From Promethearchaeia archaeon (GTDB lineage Archaea; Asgardarchaeota; Lokiarchaeia; Sigyniarchaeales; SOKP01): 64,000 bases of DNA. This document shows, in pieces, positions 13,920-25,608 of the stretch. The stretch is from assembly GCA_029856105.1 (NCBI GenBank), contig JAHQWH010000015.1, positions 32,001 through 96,000 of the forward strand. Direction: 5' to 3'. The translations under genes were made by a program, and so were the position numbers. How positions within the stretch are numbered: the stretch's first letter is position 1; each line of letters starts with the position of its first letter. The notes below the pieces were generated by a model. The model ran no database searches. It was given only the letters and a program-made list of their open reading frames with translations, and was not told the DNA's origin.

Positions 13920-14324
13920 ATGAAAGGGTTAAAGAAAAGGCGGGAGTTTAAAACTTCGCTTGAAGACTTGTTAAAAGATATTATGGATAATATTGAAGGT
14001 GTGAAAGCAGCGCAACTAACTGCAGATACTGGTCAACCACTCGCCTCTATACTACCAACAAGTGCAGATGACATGCGATTAGCAGCCATGACTGCGGCAC
14101 ATTGTTCATTGAGTGAACGTGCTATTGGAGAAATGGGTCTTGGCGAATTTGAACAATCGTACATAAAAGGAAGTAAGGGATACATATTGATTTTACATGC
14201 CGGGGAAGATAAAGTTTTAAGTGTATCTACTACAAAAGACGTTAAACTCGCGCCAATCCTATACAAGCATTACAAACAACTAGAAGATGGCGACGAAATA
14301 GTAAGTAGTACGCCCCCTGTTTAA
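13920..14324 (+). CDS. Roadblock/LC7 (MglB-like) domain protein
   Basis: GVKAAQL...G.PLAS.LP...RLAAMTAA..SLSERA..E.G.GEFEQ.YIKGSKGYILI. Confidence 0.9.
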   Translation: MKGLKKRREFKTSLEDLLKDIMDNIEGVKAAQLTADTGQPLASILPTSADDMRLAAMTAAHCSLSERAIGEMGLGEFEQSYIKGSKGYILILHAGEDKVLSVSTTKDVKLAPILYKHYKQLEDGDEIVSSTPPV

Positions 14325-14342: not shown

Positions 14343-15137
14343 TTAGGTCCTTAACCCTAATTCTTCTGGTGTTAAGTTATGAAATTTTTCATATCCAGGT
14401 AGAGTCATTCTTGTAAAAAATAGATATTTTAAATTATCCAAAAAATTATGCTTCTTTGGAAATTCGGAGTATCCCTCGTTAAATATTTGCTCCCGAAAAT
14501 TTTCTGTGAAGTGGCCTGTACTAAAAAATCTCCTTAAGAAAAGGAGTTTTCGAAAGATTCCTATTAATTTAGCACTGAATGGAGTTACTTGGCTTCTATG
14601 TTGAGACAATGCTTCAACGACGATTTGGATATCTTTCCATCTGCATTTTAATTTGAAATTGGGTTTGAAAGAGTAGTAATAAAAAACGCGTGTAGGTAAC
14701 TCGTTTTTGTTTAGTTTCTTAAGAGCAAAGAAAGGCAATCTACCAGCGTTTATGTGATCTGGATGATAATCAAGAGCATACCAAGGGTCTGGTGCAAATA
14801 AAATATCAGGTTTTTCAGTACGAATTATGTCAACAACTTTATTCAATGCCGATTTATTTATTGGAAGGTAACCATCGATATATCCTACTTTTAAAACTCG
14901 AACATGGTTTTTAGTGTATTTAGCGTACACATTATTTGCGTTTTCTAATTCTCTAGTTCGAATTCTTTTTAATCGAGCCCCCTTGAATTCTATGCGATGC
15001 GTTCCAAATTCACAATTAGTCATCAACACTTCTACAACTTCATTTCCTAACCTTAACGATTCTAGAAATGTAAACGGCACGCCAAATTCGATGTCGTCGA
15101 TATGTGGAGTAAAAAATAGAATTTTAAATCGCTTCAT
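14343..15137 (-). CDS. PIG-L/LmbE family deacetylase
   Basis: PHIDD, R..E, DG, YHPDH, HRSQ motifs. Confidence 0.85.
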   Translation of the reverse strand: MKRFKILFFTPHIDDIEFGVPFTFLESLRLGNEVVEVLMTNCEFGTHRIEFKGARLKRIRTRELENANNVYAKYTKNHVRVLKVGYIDGYLPINKSALNKVVDIIRTEKPDILFAPDPWYALDYHPDHINAGRLPFFALKKLNKNELPTRVFYYYSFKPNFKLKCRWKDIQIVVEALSQHRSQVTPFSAKLIGIFRKLLFLRRFFSTGHFTENFREQIFNEGYSEFPKKHNFLDNLKYLFFTRMTLPGYEKFHNLTPEELGLRT

Positions 15138-15161: not shown

Positions 15162-16604
15162 TTATAACTTTTTATCTTCGATATCGATACCTAGTTCTCT
15201 TAACCGTTCGCGTATTACATCGCTTAGGTCGTAGAGTTTTTTATCTCTTAACTTAGCGCGTATTTCGATTATTAAATTAACGAGACTTTTGATGAGTTTA
15301 TCTTTCTCATCCATGCTTTTAAACGAGAAAGGTGTCATTTTAGCGTTTAAAGATGGAAAAATTCCGAAAATCTTTTCATTAAATTCTATAAATTTGAAAA
15401 ATCGATCCTTAAATTCTTGGTTTATTTTCAAGCCATCTTGTAGTATAGCTTTGTTAATTTCTCTAAATAACGTCAATAACTCTGCCAAGGCTACAGGAGT
15501 GTCAAAATCGTCTTCCATAGCGTCAATAATTTTGTTTTCTGCATTTTCGATTTTTGCAATTAACTCGTTAAGTTGCTTTGATTTCGATTCAGCAAATTCA
15601 GCATCGTTCACTTTTTTAATCGTGTTTATTAATCGGTTATAAGTATTTTTAGCTTGCTCCATGCTTTCAATAGTATAATTATTTGAACTTCGATAATGAC
15701 TCGATATCAAATACCAACGAATAACCATTGGGTCATATTGCTTGGCAATATCTGCTACTGTGAAAATGTTTCCGAGACTTTTAGACATTTTTTCATCTTT
15801 TACATTAACATAACCGTTATGAAGGAAATAATTCGCAATTTTTTTACCAGTGTAAGACTCAGACTGCGCGATTTCGTTCCTGTGGTGTGGAAATTTCAAG
15901 TCTTGACCGCCCCCGTGTATGTCAATTGTTTCTCCTAAAAAGTTCAAGATCATAGCAGAACATTCAATGTGCCATCCAGGACGCCCCTCACCCCAGGGGC
16001 TTTCCCAAAAAGGCTCTCCTTCTTTCATCTTTTTCCACAACGCAAAATCTCGACTATCTAACTTATCTTCTCCAAATGCAGTATCTTGATCCACTACATA
16101 ATCTTCTTCTTCGCTTTCCTTTCCTTCATCTTTACTCTTTTGAAGAATAGAACTATATCCAGGAAACGATTTAACTGAGAAGTATACGGACCCATTTTTC
16201 TCGTAAGCGTGTCCCTTAGAAATTAATTCTTTAATAAAATTAATTATAAAATCTATTACTTCGGTTGCGCGTGGATTTCGCGTATCATGCTCGACATTGA
16301 GCATTTCCATGATTTCCTCATATTCAGCGATATAATGATCGCTTAAAGTCCTGAAATCGATGTTTCTCTCTTTAGAACTCTTAATTATTTTATCGTCAAT
16401 ATCAGTATAATTTTTTACTATATTAACTTTATAGCCCTTAAACTTTAAATACCTGTGAATTAAATCAAAAGCGACTGCGGACTTTGCGTGACCAAGGTGA
16501 GGCGAACCATATACTGTAACGCCACAAACATACATCTTGACTTTTCCGGGTTCGATTGGCTTAAATTCTTCCTTTTTAAACGTTAAGCTATTATAAACTT
16601 TCAT
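15162..16604 (-). CDS. cysS: Cysteine--tRNA ligase
   Basis: YVCGVTVY, HLGH, DFALWK, GRPGWHIEC, HGGGQDLKFPHH, KMSKS. Confidence 0.97.
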   Translation of the reverse strand: MKVYNSLTFKKEEFKPIEPGKVKMYVCGVTVYGSPHLGHAKSAVAFDLIHRYLKFKGYKVNIVKNYTDIDDKIIKSSKERNIDFRTLSDHYIAEYEEIMEMLNVEHDTRNPRATEVIDFIINFIKELISKGHAYEKNGSVYFSVKSFPGYSSILQKSKDEGKESEEEDYVVDQDTAFGEDKLDSRDFALWKKMKEGEPFWESPWGEGRPGWHIECSAMILNFLGETIDIHGGGQDLKFPHHRNEIAQSESYTGKKIANYFLHNGYVNVKDEKMSKSLGNIFTVADIAKQYDPMVIRWYLISSHYRSSNNYTIESMEQAKNTYNRLINTIKKVNDAEFAESKSKQLNELIAKIENAENKIIDAMEDDFDTPVALAELLTLFREINKAILQDGLKINQEFKDRFFKFIEFNEKIFGIFPSLNAKMTPFSFKSMDEKDKLIKSLVNLIIEIRAKLRDKKLYDLSDVIRERLRELGIDIEDKKL

Positions 16605-16657
16605 GATAATTTTTACACCTTAAAAGAGCGTACTATTAGCGATAAGATGGGTATAAG

Positions 16658-16766
16658 AGCCAGCGATGGGATTTGCACCCATGATGCTGAAAGCAACGGC
16701 TCTGCAGGCCGCCTCCTTACTACTCCCGCAACCAAGATAAATCTTGGTCATCTCGGATACGCTGGC
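16658..16766 (-). tRNA. tRNA-Cys(GCA) with 29-nt D-loop intron (16723-16751) and long variable arm
   Basis: Acceptor GCCAGCG/CGCTGGC plus U73; anticodon arm GCGGC-CTGCAGA-GCCGT; T arm ATGGG-TGCAAAT-CCCAT; CCA not encoded. Confidence 0.9.
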
Positions 16767-16932
16767 AAATTTTTATTTTTTATTTATTTTTTTTAAAAAT
16801 CAATGTTTATTAATTTTAAAAAGTAAATTATGCTAAAAATTTTGTTGTTAATGTGATAAAAATGTTTGTTCTAACTCTTTAATTCTATTCATTAAAACTA
16901 GAAATAATATAAAAAAATTTAGATCAAATTGG

Positions 16933-17460
16933 CTATTTAAAACATTTTCCACAACATTGACCATTTAAATTTGAATTTAAACTACAACTATCGAAATTAA
17001 AATCAAATGGCAAAACAAAATCATTCGTAACATCGGTTATTATGTCCACATAAACCGAAGAGACGTTAGAATTCTTTCTAAAGTGATTATTAACCATCTC
17101 ATCAATATTAGCTAGTTTAGTACCTATTACAAGAACACTGAGATTATAAGTGCCACTTAATCGAAATGCGTTTAGCATGTAAGGACAGTGTTTAACTAAT
17201 TCTATGGTTTTGTTTGGTTCTAAAGATTGAATTTCAACTCGTGCAAGGATTAAATCCATGGTTTTAACATTTATACCCGCTTGAAATTTTAAGACTCCCG
17301 CTTTTTCAAGCTTCCGAATCCTCATTCCGATCGTTGGTTGGCTCCGATCAACTCTTTTTGCGATTTCTGTATGAGTAAGCGTAGGCTCCTTTTGAATTAT
17401 TTCAATTATATTCTTATCAATCTCGTCTATTTTAAAGACTTGACTTTCCATTATCTCCAT
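16933..17460 (-). CDS. Lrp/AsnC family regulator with Cys-rich tail
   Basis: IDEIDKNII...EIAKRV.RSQPTI..RIRKLE..GV HTH, RAM domain, tail CCGKC. Confidence 0.88.
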   Translation of the reverse strand: MEIMESQVFKIDEIDKNIIEIIQKEPTLTHTEIAKRVDRSQPTIGMRIRKLEKAGVLKFQAGINVKTMDLILARVEIQSLEPNKTIELVKHCPYMLNAFRLSGTYNLSVLVIGTKLANIDEMVNNHFRKNSNVSSVYVDIITDVTNDFVLPFDFNFDSCSLNSNLNGQCCGKCFK

Positions 17461-17625: not shown

Positions 17626-17961
17626 ATGAGTGAAAGTAAAATAGAGTTTATTGAGTTTTTAAGAGTTTTAGCAGATCAGACTCGATTAGATATACTAGAT
17701 TTATTGCGATATGAGAAAAAGACTTCTTCTGAAATTCAAACAGCCTTAGACAAGTCTCAATCTACAATTTCTCAACACTTAAAGGCTCTAAGTAACAAAA
17801 ATCTCATTATTTTTGATAAAAATAATAATGTTAAGTCCTATAAAATTAAGGATCCAAATATCTTTAAGCTCTTAGAAGAAATTAAATCTTTTGTTGTAAA
17901 AATTAATCAAGAAAAACTCAAAGACTTGAGAGATTTAGACGTAATAGATACGTTATCGTGA
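17626..17961 (+). CDS. ArsR/SmtB family regulator
   Basis: LADQTRLDIL...SQSTISQHLKAL. Confidence 0.9.
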   Translation: MSESKIEFIEFLRVLADQTRLDILDLLRYEKKTSSEIQTALDKSQSTISQHLKALSNKNLIIFDKNNNVKSYKIKDPNIFKLLEEIKSFVVKINQEKLKDLRDLDVIDTLS

Positions 17962-17988: not shown

Positions 17989-18540
17989 ATGAATACAGCG
18001 ATGAGAGAAAACACAACAATTAACGCAAAAAAAGTATTAATCATGGGGTTAGATAATTCCGGTAAAACATCTATCGTATTATGTTTGAGGGGTGTGAAGA
18101 ATCTTTCGTCGTTTTCCTCGCTAAATCCTACGAGAGGGTTTAAGATCAATAAATTCCAAGCATTAGGCTCAGAATATAGCATCTGGGATTTCGGTGGGCA
18201 AGAACAATTTCGAGAGGGTTATTTAAACGACTTTCAAAACCACATAAAAAAAACTAATAAGTTCATTTATGTTTTGGACATCCAAGATCAGGAGCGGTTT
18301 AATAAATCGTTAGACTACTTAGATAAAATCGTTATCCTATTAAGGAAACATAAAGTAAATATTGATTTCTCTATATTTTTACATAAATACGATCCAGATT
18401 TGGAATTCACAAATAAAGAATTTATTGATAAACTGGTTTCTGATTTAATCAGAAATATAAAAGAATTAATTCCAAACGATTTTACGTATCAAATTTACAA
18501 AACATCGATTTATACTGTTTTTCAAAAATTTGGAATATAA
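17989..18540 (+). CDS. Small GTPase, Rag/Arf-related (start may be 18001)
   Basis: G1 GLDNSGKT, G2 PT, G3 WDFGGQ, G4 HKYD, G5 TSI. Confidence 0.92.
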   Translation: MNTAMRENTTINAKKVLIMGLDNSGKTSIVLCLRGVKNLSSFSSLNPTRGFKINKFQALGSEYSIWDFGGQEQFREGYLNDFQNHIKKTNKFIYVLDIQDQERFNKSLDYLDKIVILLRKHKVNIDFSIFLHKYDPDLEFTNKEFIDKLVSDLIRNIKELIPNDFTYQIYKTSIYTVFQKFGI

Positions 18541-18566: not shown

Positions 18567-20786
18567 TTGATTAGCAAAGTGAAAGATTCAGAAGCATCGA
18601 TAATTCGGGGTTTTTTAAACGATTATACAATATTAATAGTGATATTATTTCTTACCTATTTAACAAGTCTCTATAGTTACTTACTTTTTCATTCAATAAT
18701 TGAAATAATTAGTATTGTTATTTCAGGGGGGATTTTTATTGTTGGTTGGCACTCAAGAAAATACATGAATAGCTCCTTCTTTTTGGTAGTAGGTATTTCT
18801 TTTCTTTTCATAAGTATAATTGATTTACTTCACACCTTAGCCTACTCAGGAATGGGGATTTTTCTTGAATTCGACGCGAATCTTCCAACGCAATTGTGGA
18901 TTGTAGCCCGATATTGGCAAGCACTCTCCTATTTATTTGCTTCTATGGTCATAAAAAAAAAGATTAAAGCTAATTATTTATTCGTAAGCTATATCATTAT
19001 AATTCTTATTTTATTAACCACCATATTTCAAGGTTTCTTCCCTGTATGTTATATCAAAGGTTCGGGGCTCACTCCTTTTAAAATAATTAGTGAATACGCA
19101 ATTGATACAATTCTTTTTGTTACACTAATAGTATTATACAAGCATAAAGACGAGTTTGCTGAGAAAATATTTCTTTTAATTGTAATATCCATTATTGCCA
19201 CAATGATCTCAGAATTGGCGTTTACTTTCTATATTAGTGTATTTGGCTTCTCAAATTTTATTGGTCACATTTTTAAAATAATTGCCTTTTTCTTTGTCTA
19301 TAAGGCAATAATCGAATTGGGCATAGAAACTCCATTTGATTTATTATTTAGGAAGTTGAAGTTGAGCGAGGAATCTTCGATTGAAAAAGCGAACCAATTA
19401 GAACAAGCTTACTCTGAATTTAACCAAATGTTCAACGCATCTCTACCATTAAGGGTAATCAGTAATAACGGCGATATTTTGCGAGTTAATGAGACATACG
19501 CTTCTCTTTTCCACTTAACCAAAGAAGACCTTATAGGTAAAAAATGTTTTGACCTTCAATTAGGGTACGAACATCGATGTCATACAGAAATATGTTCAAG
19601 GAATCAAATTCTAGATGGAAAAGACTATTATGAATATGAATTAATCACAAAATTCGATGACGGTACTAAGATTGTTAGTCTTGTAAGATCAGTTCCTCAT
19701 AGAAGTGCAAATGGTGAAGTCATTGGACTGATACAAAATTTTACTAATATTACTGAGCGTAAATTTGCGCAAGAAAAAATTGAGGATATGGCAAGGTTTC
19801 CAATGGAAAATCCTAACCCCACATTAAGAGTAAGTAACAATTATATTCTTTTAGCAAATAAAGTGAGTCAATACTTATTCTTAGTCGGAGAAGGGAGTAA
19901 TATCCCTAAGTTTTTACAGGAACACATCCATAAAGCCTTTTCTGAGAACCTTAATTTAGAAATAGAGTTGAATATTAAAGATCAAATTTATTCTCTTTTC
20001 ATTGTACCAATGAAAGATAGAGGATATGCAAATATATACGGTATGAATATTACAGCTCGGAAAGAAGCTGAAAAAAGCTTGGAACGCTTTGTTTCAACGG
20101 TATCGCATGAATTAAGAACCCCAATTTCGGTTTTAATTATGTCGCTTGATTTTTTAGATAATCATTCTGAAAAAGTTACTCCAGGTATAGAAAAAAAATT
20201 GCAGGAAGGAATCAAAAGAAACATTTATCTTCTAAAAGAATTAGTTGACGATATTTTAACGTTATCAAGAATAGACGAGCGTAAATTAAAACTAAAGTGG
20301 GACGAGTATAATCCACTTAAGATTATGGGTGACATATTAACTTTAATGGAGCCTATTGGAAATGCGAAAAATATTACTTTTAGCGTAGATATAGATAAAA
20401 ACATTAAATTGTATGGGGATAAAACAAAAATTGACCAAATATTTCGTATTTTTATCGATAACTCCATAAAATATTCAAAGGAGAGTAACAAAATAGAGAT
20501 TAGAGCTATTAATCATTATAAAGGGAAATACAACATAGAGGAAAAAGATGGTGTTTTATTCCAGATTAAAGATTATGGAGTAGGAATTTTGGAAGAAGAT
20601 TTGCCATCTATTTTTCAAAGATTTTTTAGATCTGAACAAGTAAGCAATATTCCAGGTACGGGGTTAGGATTATCTATAGCAAAAGAACTATTAAAAATTC
20701 ATGGTGGCGAAGTATGGGTTCAAAGCGATTATGATAAAGGATCAACTTTTTCTATTTTTCTGCCGATAATTGAAAAAAGAATATAA
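18567..20786 (+). CDS. MASE3-PAS sensor histidine kinase
   Basis: YLLFHSIIE...DLLHTLAY.GM (MASE3), PAS, SHELRTP, DYGVG, GTGLGL. Confidence 0.92.
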   Translation: MISKVKDSEASIIRGFLNDYTILIVILFLTYLTSLYSYLLFHSIIEIISIVISGGIFIVGWHSRKYMNSSFFLVVGISFLFISIIDLLHTLAYSGMGIFLEFDANLPTQLWIVARYWQALSYLFASMVIKKKIKANYLFVSYIIIILILLTTIFQGFFPVCYIKGSGLTPFKIISEYAIDTILFVTLIVLYKHKDEFAEKIFLLIVISIIATMISELAFTFYISVFGFSNFIGHIFKIIAFFFVYKAIIELGIETPFDLLFRKLKLSEESSIEKANQLEQAYSEFNQMFNASLPLRVISNNGDILRVNETYASLFHLTKEDLIGKKCFDLQLGYEHRCHTEICSRNQILDGKDYYEYELITKFDDGTKIVSLVRSVPHRSANGEVIGLIQNFTNITERKFAQEKIEDMARFPMENPNPTLRVSNNYILLANKVSQYLFLVGEGSNIPKFLQEHIHKAFSENLNLEIELNIKDQIYSLFIVPMKDRGYANIYGMNITARKEAEKSLERFVSTVSHELRTPISVLIMSLDFLDNHSEKVTPGIEKKLQEGIKRNIYLLKELVDDILTLSRIDERKLKLKWDEYNPLKIMGDILTLMEPIGNAKNITFSVDIDKNIKLYGDKTKIDQIFRIFIDNSIKYSKESNKIEIRAINHYKGKYNIEEKDGVLFQIKDYGVGILEEDLPSIFQRFFRSEQVSNIPGTGLGLSIAKELLKIHGGEVWVQSDYDKGSTFSIFLPIIEKRI

Positions 20787-20850
20787 ACTAACTTCTCCTT
20801 ATTCTATCCTAATAGACATTTAAAACAATACAAATTCAGTCAGATTTGAT

Positions 20851-21747
20851 TTGAAACCTCTAATTCTTATTGTTGAAGATAATGTTGATTTGTTGTACAA
20901 TATAAATTTAGTGTTAGAATCGAATAATTATAAACCGATTACTGCTAAAAACGGAAAAGTAGCTCTAAAAATTCTTTCGGAACTTGAACAGATTCCTGAT
21001 ATTATCATTAGCGATATAATAATGCCTGAAATGAATGGTTATGAGTTTTTTAGAGTGATATCCAAAGAACCTCGATGGAATCGAATTCCTTTCGTTTTTC
21101 TTTCTGCTCGCACTACTCCTAAAGATATTAGACTTGGAAAGTTGCTAGGAGTAGACGATTATTTAACAAAGCCATTTGACGAAAAAGACTTGTTAGCTAT
21201 AATATCTGGTAAAATTGCCCGTATTAATAGAGTAAATGCTTTAAACAACAAAATCGATGAAGTCTTTTCAACCATGGATATCGAAATGAAGATGTCGGCT
21301 ACTAGTGACCATGGAGAATTTATATGCTTATTACTAACCTTTTGGGACGATAAGTTTGGTCCCAATTTAAATTGCTATTACCCTGAAGAAAAAGATTTTT
21401 CCATATCCTTAGACGATATTTCAAATCAATTGTTTACGGTAGCAAATTCCATTTATGGTCAAAACAAAATAACTAAGGCTGAAGGTGTTTTATTAAACAT
21501 TGAAAATTTAAATAGTCGTGGATACCTTTTTTTTGATTCGTATCCTGATAAAGAAGAGAGATTTGGAGAAAAACAATATATGATTGCAATTATCGCTCCA
21601 TTAATAAACTATTTTCATACTTTAAAGATTAAAGATGTATTTACTGATTTATCAGATAAGATTAAAAATAAATTGAATTGGAACATCAAAGAATATTGGA
21701 AAAGAGTTTACGATATTTTGTTGATTGAAACAATACAAATAGAATAG
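20851..21747 (+). CDS. Response regulator with C-terminal longin/uDENN-like domain
   Basis: REC motifs VEDN, SDIIMP, LSA, KPF; C-terminal CLLLTFWDDKFGP...YP. Confidence 0.85.
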   Translation: MKPLILIVEDNVDLLYNINLVLESNNYKPITAKNGKVALKILSELEQIPDIIISDIIMPEMNGYEFFRVISKEPRWNRIPFVFLSARTTPKDIRLGKLLGVDDYLTKPFDEKDLLAIISGKIARINRVNALNNKIDEVFSTMDIEMKMSATSDHGEFICLLLTFWDDKFGPNLNCYYPEEKDFSISLDDISNQLFTVANSIYGQNKITKAEGVLLNIENLNSRGYLFFDSYPDKEERFGEKQYMIAIIAPLINYFHTLKIKDVFTDLSDKIKNKLNWNIKEYWKRVYDILLIETIQIE

Positions 21748-21792: not shown

Positions 21793-22731
21793 CTAAAAGC
21801 GATACAATTCTGTTGAGAGATATTTTTCTCCTCCGTCAGGTAAGAGTGCAACGATATTTTCTCCTTCTACGAAATCTTTTGAAGCTTCGAAAATTGCTGC
21901 CCATGCACAGGCTCCTGCTGAAATTCCAATGAATATGCCTTCCATTCTAGCTAATTTTCTAGCCGTCTCGATGGCATCTTTGTAGTCAACCTTTATAATT
22001 TTGTCGTAAATTTTAATATTTAACACTTCGGGGATAAAACCAGCACCTATACCTTGGATTTTATGAGGACCTGGTCTCTCACCTGATAAGATCGCAGAAT
22101 CCTTAGGTTCTACTGCGTAAACCTTCATTCTCGCCCCAACCCTATCTTTTAATACCTCACCGACTCCTGTTATTGTTCCACCAGTCCCTATTCCAGCAAC
22201 AAACCCATCCACTTGACCGGCTAAATCGTTAAATATCTCTATAGCTGTAGTTTTTCGGTGTATATCTGGGTTAGCTAGGTTTTTAAATTGTTGAGGGATG
22301 AATACTTTTCCTTTTTCTTTAGCTATTTCTTCCGCTTTTGAAATCGATCTTTTCATACCACCTTCTTTTGGGGTTAAAACTACCTCAGCACCAAAGGCTT
22401 TTAGAATTTGGACTCTCTCGATAGTTACGCTTTCGGGCATTACTAAAGTTATTTTATATCCTTTTGACGCACACACAAGCGCTAGACCAATGCCCGTATT
22501 TCCAGAAGTAGGCTCTACTATGGTTGTATCTTTATCAATAAGACCTTCCTCTTCGGCTTTAAGTATCATGTTCATTCCAATTCTATCTTTAACGCTACCC
22601 CCAGGGTTAAAAGACTCCAATTTTACAAATACATTGGGCTTAACGCTTCCAACGATTCTGTTTAATTTCACTAAGGGCGTTTTCCCAATTGCTTCAACTA
22701 TATTTTTATAATAATTTGCCATTAAATCCAC
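21793..22731 (-). CDS. cysK: Cysteine synthase A
   Basis: NPGGSVKDR, EPTSGNTG, GTGGT, PHKIQGIG. Confidence 0.96.
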   Translation of the reverse strand: MDLMANYYKNIVEAIGKTPLVKLNRIVGSVKPNVFVKLESFNPGGSVKDRIGMNMILKAEEEGLIDKDTTIVEPTSGNTGIGLALVCASKGYKITLVMPESVTIERVQILKAFGAEVVLTPKEGGMKRSISKAEEIAKEKGKVFIPQQFKNLANPDIHRKTTAIEIFNDLAGQVDGFVAGIGTGGTITGVGEVLKDRVGARMKVYAVEPKDSAILSGERPGPHKIQGIGAGFIPEVLNIKIYDKIIKVDYKDAIETARKLARMEGIFIGISAGACAWAAIFEASKDFVEGENIVALLPDGGEKYLSTELYRF

Positions 22732-22765
22732 CTATTTATTTTACAATCATTAAAGATTTTCCACT

Positions 22766-23611
22766 TTATATTCCACTACCATTTTCTCCGTAAAATATTT
22801 CGATATCGTCTTCTGTTGGTTTCGAACTATGAGGAAAATGTTTCTCCAATTCTTTGATTCTTTTATTTAAACTCGAGAAAGCGATTGAAATTGGGTCGGG
22901 AAGTTCACCGTGGCGCAAATCAATTTTTTCGATTTTTTCTCCTTTTTTCGATACAATTTTCGCAGGAACCCCTACGACTACGCAATTTGAAGGCACATCG
23001 CTAACAACCACGGAATTTGCGCCAACTCTCACGTTTTCTCCAAGAGTAATAGGTCCTAAAATCTTTGCGCCAGTACCAACAACAACATTATCACCTAAAG
23101 TGGGGTGCCTTTTTTTTTGTTCCAAATTAGTACCCCCTAAAACTACGCCTGCGTAAATCGTTACATTGTTTCCAATCTCAGTTGTTTCCCCTATAACTAC
23201 TCCGGCTCCGTGGTCTATAAAGAATTCGCTACCAATCTCTGCTCCTGGATGAATTTCTACAGCAGTCAGATCTCGTGCGATACCAGAGATATATCTAGGT
23301 ATGTATGGTAATCCTAATTTCCAAAAGAAATGCGCAATGCGATATAGTAATACGGCTTTAATCCCAGGATAACTTGTTAAAACTTCAATTAAGGTGCGTG
23401 CAGCGGGATCTTTATTAAACGCAGCATTCACATCCGAAACAAAGAAATTTAAGATACCTTGAAGATACTTGTTAATTTCTCTGTAATCTAAATCCTCCGT
23501 TTTAAATTCTAATTTTAGCAAACAATCTGTGCATTGGTTCCTTCCACTTATTGGTTTAAAACCTAACTTTTTACCACAAGATAAACATCTAAGAAAATCA
23601 TCCGTTTCCAT
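22766..23611 (-). CDS. cysE: Serine O-acetyltransferase with N-terminal zinc-ribbon extension
   Basis: DPAA, EIHPGA.IG, FIDHG.GVVIGET, KRHPT hexapeptide repeats. Confidence 0.94.
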   Translation of the reverse strand: METDDFLRCLSCGKKLGFKPISGRNQCTDCLLKLEFKTEDLDYREINKYLQGILNFFVSDVNAAFNKDPAARTLIEVLTSYPGIKAVLLYRIAHFFWKLGLPYIPRYISGIARDLTAVEIHPGAEIGSEFFIDHGAGVVIGETTEIGNNVTIYAGVVLGGTNLEQKKRHPTLGDNVVVGTGAKILGPITLGENVRVGANSVVVSDVPSNCVVVGVPAKIVSKKGEKIEKIDLRHGELPDPISIAFSSLNKRIKELEKHFPHSSKPTEDDIEIFYGENGSGI

Positions 23612-23745: not shown

Positions 23746-25608
23746 ATGGAATTTGGATATAGTGACAAAATATTAAGAGTTAATTTATCAAATGATAAGA
23801 TTAGTGTAGAACATCCGGAAGAAAAATTCTATAGGAAATATATTGGTGGAGAGGGTTTTGTTGCGTATTATCTTTTAAAAGAATTAAAACCTAACATAGA
23901 TCCTCTTGGTCCCGAAAACAAGTTGGTTTTTGCTACGGGTCCTATAACGGGCGTATCTATCGCAGGAGCGGGAAGAAATAGCGTTGGTGCAAAATCGCCC
24001 TTAACAAACGGATTTGGTGAAGCTGAAGTGGGGGGATATTGGGGGCCAGAGTTGAAAAGAGCTGGTTTCGATGCAATAATTATTGAAGGAAAAGCAAAAA
24101 GTCCAATTTTTATATGGATAAAAAATGAAAACGTTGAAATAAGAGACGCTAGTCTTATCTGGGGAAAAACAACCGGCGAAGCTCAACAAATAATAAAAAA
24201 CGAATTAGACGATAAACTTGTGCATATAAGTCAGATTGGCCCAGGAGGCGAGCATTTAGTGCGGTATGCTTGTGTAATAAACGATCTTCGTAGCGCTGCA
24301 GGTCGAACAGGTATGGGAGCCGTCATGGGTTCTAAAAATCTTAAAGCCGTAGTTGTGAGGGGTAATAAGAGACCTAAAGTGGCTAACAAGGAAAAGTTAA
24401 GAGAATTAAGGGATTCTTTTAGTAATAACTACTTGAAAAATTATAAAGAATATTACTCGTATGGAACTGGTGGAGGTGTAATGGAAATGTTTGCCACTAT
24501 AGGGAACCTTCCAACTCGAAATTTTAAAGCAGGGGGGACTAATAGGGCAAAGACTCTAGACCCTAAAATTAACAAAGAAGAAATTAATCTAAAAATGGAA
24601 ACTTGTTTTGCGTGTCCAATTAAATGCAAAAAGGTGGTACAAATTAAAGAACCGTGGGTCGTAGATCCAATATATGGTGGCCCAGAATACGAGACTCTTG
24701 CTGCTTTCGGCTCTAATTGTGGAATTTATGACTTAAAAGCTGTGTGTAAGGCTAATGAACTTTGTAATAAGTACTCAATTGATACGATCTCTACTGGTAT
24801 GAACATTAGTTTTGCCATGGAGTGCTTTGAAAATAACATATTAAACGAATCCGATACAGGAGGGATAGTCTTAAAGTTCGGTAATTCCCAAGCCATGATT
24901 CAAATGATTGAAAAAATTGCTAAGCGAGAAGGTTTAGGAGATATCTTAGCTGAGGGCGTAAAAAGAGCCGCCGAAAAAATCCAAAACGGAGCGCAAGAAT
25001 TCGCTATCCATGTGAAGGGTCAAGAACTTCCGATGCACGAACCACGCTTTAAGCAAGGATTGGGGTTAGGATACACGATTTCACCAACAGGAGCAGAACA
25101 TATGCATAATCTCCACGATACAGCTATTGCAAGTGAAGGCTCGATTGCTAATTTTAAGACTCTTGGAATTTTAACACCACTCCAACTTGATGATTTGAGC
25201 GCAAAAAAGGTTCGAGCCTTAATATATCAGATGAATTGGTGTGCTTTAGTTAATGCTCTCGTAATGTGTTATTTTGTGCCGTGGAATCCATTTGAGCTAA
25301 CAGAAGTAGTTAGAGCTGTTACTGGTTGGAATACCTCAACTTTTGAATTGATGAAAGTAGGCGAGCGAATAATGAATATGACCCGAATATTTAACTTAAG
25401 AGAAGGATTTACGAGTGATGACGATCGTTTACCAGACAGATTCTTCCAACCTCACACTTCAGGAGCTCTAGCTGAAACATCTATCGATTTAGAAAAATTT
25501 AGTGAAGCTAAAAATATCTACTACGAAATGATGGGTTGGGACAAAAATGGTGTTCCGTCAAAAATAAAATTGGACGAACTCGATATTAGTTGGGCTAATA
25601 GTTTTTGA
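23746..25608 (+). CDS. aor: Tungsten aldehyde:ferredoxin oxidoreductase family protein
   Basis: KSPLT, AAGRTGMGAVMGSKNLKA, CFACPIKC, GPEYET, DTIS. Confidence 0.92.
   Translation: MEFGYSDKILRVNLSNDKISVEHPEEKFYRKYIGGEGFVAYYLLKELKPNIDPLGPENKLVFATGPITGVSIAGAGRNSVGAKSPLTNGFGEAEVGGYWGPELKRAGFDAIIIEGKAKSPIFIWIKNENVEIRDASLIWGKTTGEAQQIIKNELDDKLVHISQIGPGGEHLVRYACVINDLRSAAGRTGMGAVMGSKNLKAVVVRGNKRPKVANKEKLRELRDSFSNNYLKNYKEYYSYGTGGGVMEMFATIGNLPTRNFKAGGTNRAKTLDPKINKEEINLKMETCFACPIKCKKVVQIKEPWVVDPIYGGPEYETLAAFGSNCGIYDLKAVCKANELCNKYSIDTISTGMNISFAMECFENNILNESDTGGIVLKFGNSQAMIQMIEKIAKREGLGDILAEGVKRAAEKIQNGAQEFAIHVKGQELPMHEPRFKQGLGLGYTISPTGAEHMHNLHDTAIASEGSIANFKTLGILTPLQLDDLSAKKVRALIYQMNWCALVNALVMCYFVPWNPFELTEVVRAVTGWNTSTFELMKVGERIMNMTRIFNLREGFTSDDDRLPDRFFQPHTSGALAETSIDLEKFSEAKNIYYEMMGWDKNGVPSKIKLDELDISWANSF

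Follow-up and report, generated by a model that had tools for sequence, protein, structure and literature searches.

A response regulator with a predicted longin output domain and its linkage to a Rag-like small GTPase gene in a Lokiarchaeial genome

In the genome of a Promethearchaeia archaeon (Asgardarchaeota, Lokiarchaeia, Sigyniarchaeales, SOKP01), a response regulator gene raises the question of what kind of output domain follows its receiver (REC) domain, and on which partner this output might act. The gene is located at positions 20851 to 21747 of a 64,000-nucleotide stretch of DNA (contig JAHQWH010000015.1, positions 32,001 to 96,000 of the forward strand, GenBank assembly GCA_029856105.1; G+C content 33.7%), which is referred to below as the window. 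An earlier reading made from the letters of the window, hereafter the original prediction, had proposed a eukaryote-like longin/uDENN domain for the protein's C-terminal portion. In eukaryotes, Rag and Arf GTPases are switched off by longin domains of the GTPase-activating protein (GAP) type, and a Rag/Arf-like GTPase is encoded in the same block of genes. According to our best reading, the protein, named here REC-longin, may act on this neighbouring GTPase as a GAP controlled by phosphorylation, or may at least serve it as a binding platform.

The receiver and the predicted longin domain

The gene and the elements of its product on which the analysis relies are the following.

20851 to 21747, + strand: REC-longin response regulator gene, 298 amino acids plus stop codon (open reading frame, Pfam, homologues and AlphaFold)
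20863 to 21204, + strand: receiver domain, residues 5-118 (Pfam PF00072, Response_reg)
21013 to 21015, + strand: codon of the phospho-acceptor D55, within SDIIMP
21322 to 21744, + strand: predicted longin domain, residues 158-298, beta-beta-alpha-beta-beta-beta-alpha-alpha (AlphaFold2 model and structural matches)
21343 to 21363, + strand: WDDKFGP loop (W165-P171) between beta1 and beta2, corresponding to the 'GP motif' known from GAP-type longins; as in C9orf72, a WD lies five residues before the GP
21559 to 21561, + strand: R237, candidate arginine finger in the loop between beta4 and beta5 (alignment, model and predicted interface)

The open reading frame (ORF) begins with a TTG codon, and no alternative start codon lies between it and the in-frame TAA upstream (20821-20823). 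The 298-residue protein is matched over 100% of its length, with 70-100% identity, by more than 120 clusters of proteins from metagenomes of Lokiarchaeota/Promethearchaeota; because these homologues match at full length and are mostly exactly 298 residues long, the gene model is considered sound. The receiver covers positions 1-110 of the 111 positions of the Response_reg profile (E 4.9e-22, 78.6 bits, cut-off 30.2). The complete set of catalytic residues that had been recognised in the original prediction was located as the acidic pair E9-D10 (VEDN), D55 (SDIIMP), S85 (LSA) and K107 (KPF), and these motifs are retained in 59 to 62 of 67 homologues of similar length (~90%). Pfam detected the receiver only, leaving the 140-residue C-terminus of the protein without any match.

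A single-sequence AlphaFold2 prediction of the whole protein was unusable (predicted local distance difference test, pLDDT, 34.7) and was replaced by a model restricted to residues 137-298 and computed from an alignment of 101 sequences. This C-terminal model reached a pLDDT of 88.6 and a predicted template modelling score (pTM) of 0.83, with a pLDDT of at least 87.4 in all five models. In segment numbering, which starts at residue 137, its elements are strands 23-30 and 34-41, helix 51-66, strands 75-81, 86-96 and 104-113, and helices 118-136 and 143-161. The topology of the predicted model is that of a longin, with no N-terminal helix and two C-terminal helices. The strand-GP-strand-helix-strand-strand-strand-helix pattern that had been guessed from the sequence is reproduced by the model, together with a second C-terminal helix that the guess did not list.

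When the model was searched against the PDB using Foldseek, FLCN-FNIP2, GATOR1, the longin of Lst4 and a Lokiarchaeal longin occupied the top ranks (E 1.7e-4 to 1e-3), and PAS/LOV domains gave weak matches (E ~0.03, template modelling scores 0.28-0.41). VIA-align was used twice, for re-scoring the Foldseek matches and for a Foldseek-independent search of 48,161 representative chains. In the independent search, all entries from rank 1 to rank 49 were longin or roadblock folds, the highest Z values being those of 8yqg (12.2), FNIP2/FLCN (11.6 and 10.6), C9orf72 (11.5), Lst4 (11.5), SMCR8 (10.6) and NPRL (10.0), and the first PAS/GAF-like chain was found at rank 50 (Z 6.8). Superposition on longins, including those of GAP complexes, gave Z values of 10-13.4 and root-mean-square deviations (rmsd) of 2.6-3.3 Å over 112-137 aligned residues, and the uDENN modules of DENND1A/B matched the longin part alone (Z 9.0-10.1). 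The re-scoring gave the following values.

Lst4: Z 13.4, rmsd 3.0 Å, 128 residues
FLCN GAP complex, chain 8dhb_J: Z 13.3, rmsd 2.7 Å, 130 residues
Lokiarchaeal longin 8yqg: Z 12.2
C9orf72: Z 11.5
GATOR1 subunits: Z 9.4-10.5
DENND1B: Z 10.1
TRAPP and SNARE longins: Z 9-11
Roadblocks, including MglB: Z about 8.5

The proposed longin/uDENN output domain is borne out at the predicted-structure level, the top matches being longin GAPs and the Lokiarchaeal longin; since longin and roadblock folds, and not PAS, GAF or HalX, hold the first 49 ranks, this reading stands at that level. The modelled structure supports the assignment of the C-terminal domain as a longin of the FLCN/NPRL2/SMCR8-C9orf72 type, rather than as a DNA-binding output. 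The DENN part is absent: the chain stops, at residue 298, with the longin fold's second C-terminal helix and has no uDENN-cDENN-dDENN architecture.

Two other identities were considered for the domain and rejected. A PAS, GAF or HalX identity was discarded in view of the PAS/LOV E-value in Foldseek, the late rank of the first PAS/GAF-like chain and the absence of HalX among the matches. A Roadblock/MglB identity was discarded as well, the roadblock topology (alpha-beta-beta-alpha-beta-beta-beta-alpha) having an N-terminal helix that the model does not have, with Z values of 7.4-8.7 over ~100 residues and no match to Pfam Robl_LC7.

Sequence profiles gave no such relationship. The searches against NPR2, uDENN and Afi1/Avl9 returned no match among the 101 family members, in which Pfam at E ≤0.01 found only REC, GTPase, PAS and similar domains, and NPR2, Folliculin, uDENN, DENN, Avl9, Afi1 and Longin were all absent. 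The longin assignment therefore rests on predicted structure and motifs. Pfam NPR2 (PF06218) likewise found nothing at the REC-longin locus in its own genome, and no match above the cut-off across 400 genomes of the phylum. Comparison of the domain with PDB sequences by phmmer and by profile hmmsearch gave chance matches only (designed TIM barrels, E 0.026; a jagunal chimera, E 0.36). In a protein-language-model search, a Promethearchaeota cluster with Pfam NPR2 in 19% of its members came out as a neighbour of the domain (score 0.92-0.93), which is taken as a lead only.

A HMMER scan of 1.84 billion cluster representatives yielded 167 representatives of the domain at E ≤0.001, counted at the level of 50%-identity clusters, and 107 at E ≤1e-10. 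Given these 167 representatives and the near-invariance of W165, G170 and P171, the C-terminal domain is a genuine family under selection. An N-terminal receiver precedes it in 70 of the 101 aligned members. The other architectures comprise stand-alone proteins of 130-200 residues, fusions to PAS, RsbRD_N or DUF1638, hybrid kinases of the PAS-HisKA-HATPase-REC-longin type, and three direct fusions of a Ras/Arf-type GTPase with the longin domain (P0138, P0182, P0265). The domain was found in 166 of 400 genomes of the phylum, including 123 of 134 in the taxonomic family to which the window belongs and all 22 of a second family, usually with 1-7 copies per genome and mostly in ORFs of ~300 residues; the window's genome has one copy.

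Some members of the family have a different setting. Long ORFs of 415-696 residues end in the longin domain and have N-termini that were neither receiver nor kinase by a quick scan (L122:7001-8695, L129:1797-3887, L143:6989-8236; locus number and coordinates). In two genomes that belong to a different taxonomic family within the phylum, tandem REC-longin pairs are flanked by histidine kinase genes (L135:1162-3039, L136:6539-8413). Both tandem copies retain the WD..GP motif and the arginine, and by analogy they could heterodimerise as FLCN-FNIP or NPRL2-NPRL3 do.

Within the family, the loop starting at W165 reads WD(D/E)xxGP and is near-invariant (W in 97, G170 in 95 and P171 in 93 of the 101 alignment rows), and the pattern W[DHN][DE]xxGP is present in all 44 family ORFs taken directly from 40 genomic loci. 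The arginine at position 237 is conserved in 71 of the 101 rows and in 43 of the 44 genome-derived members; it lies between strands 86-96 and 104-113 of the predicted model and within the predicted GTPase interface described below. In FLCN, NPRL2, SMCR8 and C9orf72, a GP motif adjoining the arginine finger is located at the end of the beta1-beta2 loop, whereas it is missing in the non-GAP longins of adaptins, TRAPP subunits and DENND proteins (PMC12290439). The arginine finger of DENN/longin GAPs is located between beta4 and beta5 (bioRxiv 10.64898/2026.01.05.697756). The spacing of five residues from WD to GP is the same in C9orf72 (W33-D34 and G38-P39; PMC12290439) and in the REC-longin family. 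Judged by model positions and published residue numbers, and not by sequence alignment, the family thus appears to bear the GP loop and the beta4-beta5 arginine, both of the sequence marks by which longin-domain GAPs of eukaryotes are recognised.

The neighbouring Rag-like GTPase

Upstream of the REC-longin gene and on the same strand, three genes complete a block of four.

17626 to 17961, + strand: ArsR-type winged-helix regulator, first gene of the block (Pfam HTH_5, E 1.1e-13)
17989 to 18540, + strand: Rag/Arf-like small GTPase, 183 amino acids, stand-alone and without roadblock tail (Pfam Gtr1_RagA, E 4.7e-22; Arf, E 9.1e-21)
18567 to 20786, + strand: membrane sensor histidine kinase MASE3-PAS-HisKA-HATPase_c (MASE3, E 2.7e-79; PAS_4, E 1.2e-10; HisKA, E 2.6e-13; HATPase_c, E 6e-25)

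The gaps within the block are 27 nucleotides between the ArsR-type and GTPase genes, 26 between the GTPase and kinase genes, and 64 between the kinase and REC-longin genes. The block is retained in at least 9 loci from two genera of the taxonomic family, across which identity falls as low as 44% for the GTPase and 46% for the longin. The GTPase motifs GLDNSGKT (G1), PTRG (switch I), WDFGGQ (G3), HKYD (G4) and TSIY (G5) are invariant in 48 homologues; G4 and G5 are of the Rag type, WDFGGQ supplies the catalytic Gln, and the Gtr1_RagA and Arf scores are nearly equal. The nearest solved relatives are the Lokiarchaeal Rag-like proteins 8yl2 (E 6e-36) and 8zla (E 7e-27); Arl3, Arf6, Gtr1 and RagC/D come next. 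The Lokiarchaeal structures 8yl2 and 8zla/9m28, whose PDB titles describe RagA-like or monomeric Rag-like GTPases of Asgard Lokiarchaeota, are longer and have a roadblock-like C-terminal part.

The association was followed across 40 family loci, which were scanned with hidden Markov models (HMMs) built from our own alignments. In 29 of the 40 loci, an ORF for a small GTPase lies no more than 4 kb from the longin gene, in at least three arrangements; these loci include kin, so that the counts are not independent samples. The same HMM detected 17 GTPase ORFs in the 3.66 Mb of the window's genome, from which a chance of ~4.5% of finding one within ±5 kb follows. Besides the order GTPase-kinase-REC-longin, a second and tighter operon type is seen, with the GTPase gene placed after (or before) the REC-longin gene at a distance of 4-67 nucleotides (L125, L142, L144, L149-L152). 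A stand-alone longin gene lies beside a GTPase gene in L130, and clusters with several GTPase genes occur in L124 and L139. That the association recurs while the gene order varies, and that three GTPase-longin fusions exist, argues for a functional partnership.

For the prediction of a complex, the longin domain (segment residues 19-162) was supplied twice, together with the GTPase of the block, GTP and Mg. The interaction score ipSAE was 0.81 in three of three runs, and the best of three controls reached 0.00; in calibration, the mark for this score was attained by 58 of 80 solved complexes and by 2 of 110 mismatched pairs. The runs share at least 79% of their contacts, with a partner pLDDT of at least 82. 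To the predicted interface, one longin copy contributes segment residues 29-36 (WDDKFGPN) and 101-102 (R237, F238), and the second copy residues 31-35; the GTPase contributes residues 22-23 of the P-loop, 46-50 of switch I and Q71-F74 of switch II. In this prediction, the WDDKFGP loop contacts Q71-F74 and D22 of the GTPase. The GP loops of both copies touch the GTPase in the prediction, in which two copies had been supplied and the score covers the GTPase partner only. The GP loop and R237 are thus predicted in silico to dock on the GTPase's switch regions.

Other genes surround the block. A stand-alone Roadblock/LC7 gene (13920-14324, + strand; Robl_LC7, E 4.8e-13) is located 3.7 kb upstream of the Rag-like GTPase gene, and its product could provide in trans the dimerisation domain that the GTPase lacks. 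Between this gene and cysS, a gene of the PIG-L family (GlcNAc-PI de-N-acetylase-like; 14343-15137, - strand) is found. The block is flanked on one side by genes for cysteinyl-tRNA synthetase and an AsnC/Lrp regulator (15162-17460, - strand), and on the other by genes for a PALP enzyme (cysK-like) and a hexapeptide acetyltransferase (cysE-like; 21793-23611, - strand). Both cysteine-related flanks are retained in same-genus loci and in some loci of the second genus (L112, L113, L116, L121, L127), whereas in L118-L120 and L131 the four-gene block is present and only the AsnC gene remains of the flanks. Further downstream, an aldehyde:ferredoxin oxidoreductase gene (23746-25608, + strand; AFOR_N and AFOR_C, E 1.7e-123) is syntenic in same-genus loci.

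A possible GAP mechanism and its alternatives

We lean, with modest confidence, towards a combined mechanism in which REC-longin is a kinase-controlled regulator with a GAP-type longin output that acts on the neighbouring Rag-like GTPase. The upstream MASE3-PAS histidine kinase, whose gene is syntenic beside the REC-longin gene in related genomes, is presumed to be the cognate kinase and, following general knowledge of two-component systems, would phosphorylate D55. As in receiver domains generally, phosphorylation may then alter the dimerisation or the exposure of the longin domain. A longin dimer would dock on the GTPase's switch regions, as the in silico prediction and the gene linkage suggest, and the WDDxxGP loop and R237 might enter the nucleotide pocket and stimulate GTP hydrolysis, a step suggested by the motifs, the predicted geometry and the eukaryotic longin GAPs. 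In this way the operon, in which the ArsR-type regulator would be co-transcribed with the GTPase, the kinase and REC-longin, might let a signal from the membrane or the environment set the GTP/GDP state of its small GTPase. That the locus encodes a complete prokaryotic pathway, running from a sensor kinase through a receiver and an arginine-finger longin GAP to the Rag-like GTPase of the operon and using the same catalytic device as FLCN, GATOR1 and C9orf72-SMCR8, is a possibility that we put forward tentatively, with somewhat less than even confidence.

Several points weigh against a GAP. The proportion of 29 of 40 loci exaggerates the number of independent GTPase associations, because related loci are kin. 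Homology with the eukaryotic GAP longins is not distinguished by sequence profiles from convergence within the longin fold, because there is no profile link to the Pfam models NPR2, Folliculin or DENN. Eukaryotic longin GAPs are heterodimers with DENN domains, and the REC-longin homodimer is an assumption, made because the genome has a single family member and the DENN part is absent. The putative GAP activity rests on motifs and predicted geometry. Our own alignments and the accompanying ligands fall outside the calibration of the complex tool, and the passing score may reflect likeness to known complexes rather than binding, because FLCN-FNIP2-RagC, GATOR1-RagA and C9orf72-SMCR8-Arf1 complexes have already been solved. 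Finally, most longin and roadblock platforms are guanine nucleotide exchange factors (GEFs) or scaffolds, not GAPs (PMC10933270; PMC13408092).

This last point also speaks for the main alternative explanation, in which the neighbouring GTPase is indeed bound by the longin domain, but the domain acts as a GEF, a holder resembling a guanine nucleotide dissociation inhibitor (GDI), an effector or a localisation platform, with phosphorylation controlling exchange or recruitment. TRAPP, Mon1-Ccz1, DENND1 and Ragulator are precedents for such non-GAP longin or roadblock proteins, and MglB has both functions. TRAPP, Mon1-Ccz1, DENND1 and MglB are indeed among the structural matches (Z 8-10), and linkage and fusions point to partnership while being silent on the direction of regulation. 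However, the GP motif, missing from non-GAP longins (PMC12290439), is near-invariant in the REC-longin family, the conserved beta4-beta5 arginine is a mark of longin GAPs, and the predicted pose sets both the GP loop and the arginine at the P-loop and at switch II Gln71. The longins of GAP complexes moreover outscore those of GEFs (Z 10.0-13.4 vs ~8-10.9), and we regard the GEF or platform explanation as unlikely.

The domain might also have nothing to do with the GTPase, being a generic protein- or ligand-binding module such as a SNARE-like longin or a PAS/GAF-like sensor, in which case the gene order would be inherited synteny. The longin fold is multipurpose, Sec22b, Ykt6, VAMP7 and AP sigma/mu matching at Z 7.5-9.2; the weak PAS/LOV matches in Foldseek, the family's fusions to PAS, RsbRD_N or DUF1638 and the 11 of 40 loci that have no GTPase in the stretch examined could be understood in the same way. 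Several of these 11 loci, however, end at contig ends (L117, L128), and the GTPase association recurs in varied orders and in fusions, well in excess of the 4.5% background. Conserved residues of the surface loop coincide with the predicted GTPase interface, and 49 longin or roadblock entries come ahead of any PAS/GAF-like fold, which makes such a generic module distinctly improbable. As for the receiver being the only functional part, as in a single-domain CheY-like protein, with a fast-evolving tail whose fold is a modelling artefact, this would agree with the database labels of the homologues ('response regulator' or 'CheY-like') and with the lack of a Pfam match in the tail. Yet the tail is 70-100% identical over 120 clusters, carries invariant motifs, exists as a stand-alone domain and in other fusions, and is modelled at a pLDDT of at least 87.4 in all five AlphaFold2 models; we give this explanation almost no credence and, because of the conservation data, consider it effectively refuted.

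Related systems and significance

Fusions of Asgard NPRL2-like longin domains with two-component domains were reported by Liu et al. (bioRxiv 10.1101/2020.10.19.343400; Nature 2021), who suggested that growth regulation is still centred on two-component systems with eukaryote-like regulators (bioRxiv 10.1101/2020.10.19.343400). Because such fusions had been published, neither the REC-longin architecture class nor its broad interpretation is new: the claim of the original prediction that the fusion is notable as lying outside the standard output classes holds for bacterial classifications, but not as a new architecture. The fusions of Liu et al. come from the same phylum and have the same kind of architecture (longin with receiver or kinase modules), and are likened to REC-longin here by their description and not by asCOG identity. 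Their text has no linked Rag-like GTPase gene, no WD..GP and arginine motifs and no GAP mechanism for these fusions. In UniProt and the AlphaFold DB, 15 Asgard longins of the FLCN/SMCR8 type, mostly Heimdallarchaeial, carry a GP motif and an arginine finger (PMC12290439, Traffic 2025); they share these marks with REC-longin, and no receiver fusion or operon partner is described for them there. In a cultured Lokiarchaeon, GTPase genes generally lie outside operons with longin or roadblock genes (PMC10933270). A literature search, which covered few subscription papers and is weak evidence for that reason, found no report of the operon with a Rag-like GTPase, of the recurrent GTPase adjacency or of the WD..GP and arginine signature of the REC-fused family.

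Among the eukaryotic GAP complexes, FLCN-FNIP (acting on RagC/D), GATOR1 NPRL2-NPRL3 (RagA/B) and C9orf72-SMCR8 (Arf/Rab) share with REC-longin the longin fold, the GP and arginine marks and, as proposed here, a client of the Rag/Arf type. They differ in that a DENN (or NPRL2-specific) part follows the longin, whereas none does so here, and similarity by sequence profile is undetectable. The eukaryotic GAPs are also obligate heterodimers in nutrient-sensing complexes, whereas REC-longin, a single-copy gene product, is presumed to be a homodimer under the control of a receiver and a histidine kinase. The Lokiarchaeal Roadblock-Longin protein of PDB 8yqg, from the same phylum, is the top match of the independent search (Z 12.2, rmsd 3.3 Å, 134 residues), but has 8% identity and a roadblock fusion instead of a receiver; since it was solved as a longin homodimer, a homodimer is plausible for REC-longin.

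The MglA-MglB module of Myxococcus xanthus, with RomR/RomX and Frz, similarly combines a small GTPase, a dimeric GAP of roadblock fold and a receiver protein, RomR, and MglB matches the longin model at Z 8.1-8.5. However, MglB has the roadblock fold, with a helix at its N-terminus and a single one at its C-terminus, and lacks GP or arginine-finger marks, the receiver and the GAP are on separate proteins, and MglA belongs to another GTPase family. The REC-NitrOD3 regulators of Thaumarchaeota (PMC5847659, Galperin et al. 2018) are archaeal too, and their output is related to Roadblock/LC7, the sister fold of the longin; they differ in phylum and in domain family, and GAP motifs or GTPase linkage are unreported for them.

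Through gene linkage, the REC-longin family offers a candidate GTPase partner for a GP-motif longin, where the authors of PMC12290439 left open which Asgard GTPases (ArfR or Rag/Gtr) are the partners of the longins with this motif. The 183-residue Rag-like GTPase and the 298-residue REC-longin, with its D55 switch and two predicted catalytic elements, form a small, soluble and conserved pair for standard GTPase assays, and the operon offers a directly testable candidate for a prokaryotic forerunner of Rag-GAP signalling. Should the GAP reading fail, the family would still be among the commonest response-regulator outputs in Lokiarchaeia, being present in 123 of 134 genomes of the taxonomic family. 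If it is true, the longin-GAP mechanism would be older than eukaryotes, and this would be the first two-component system with the nucleotide state of a small GTPase as its output. The pairing of Rag GTPases with longin GAPs that feeds mTORC1 in eukaryotes would then have existed already in Asgard archaea, as the output of a two-component system.

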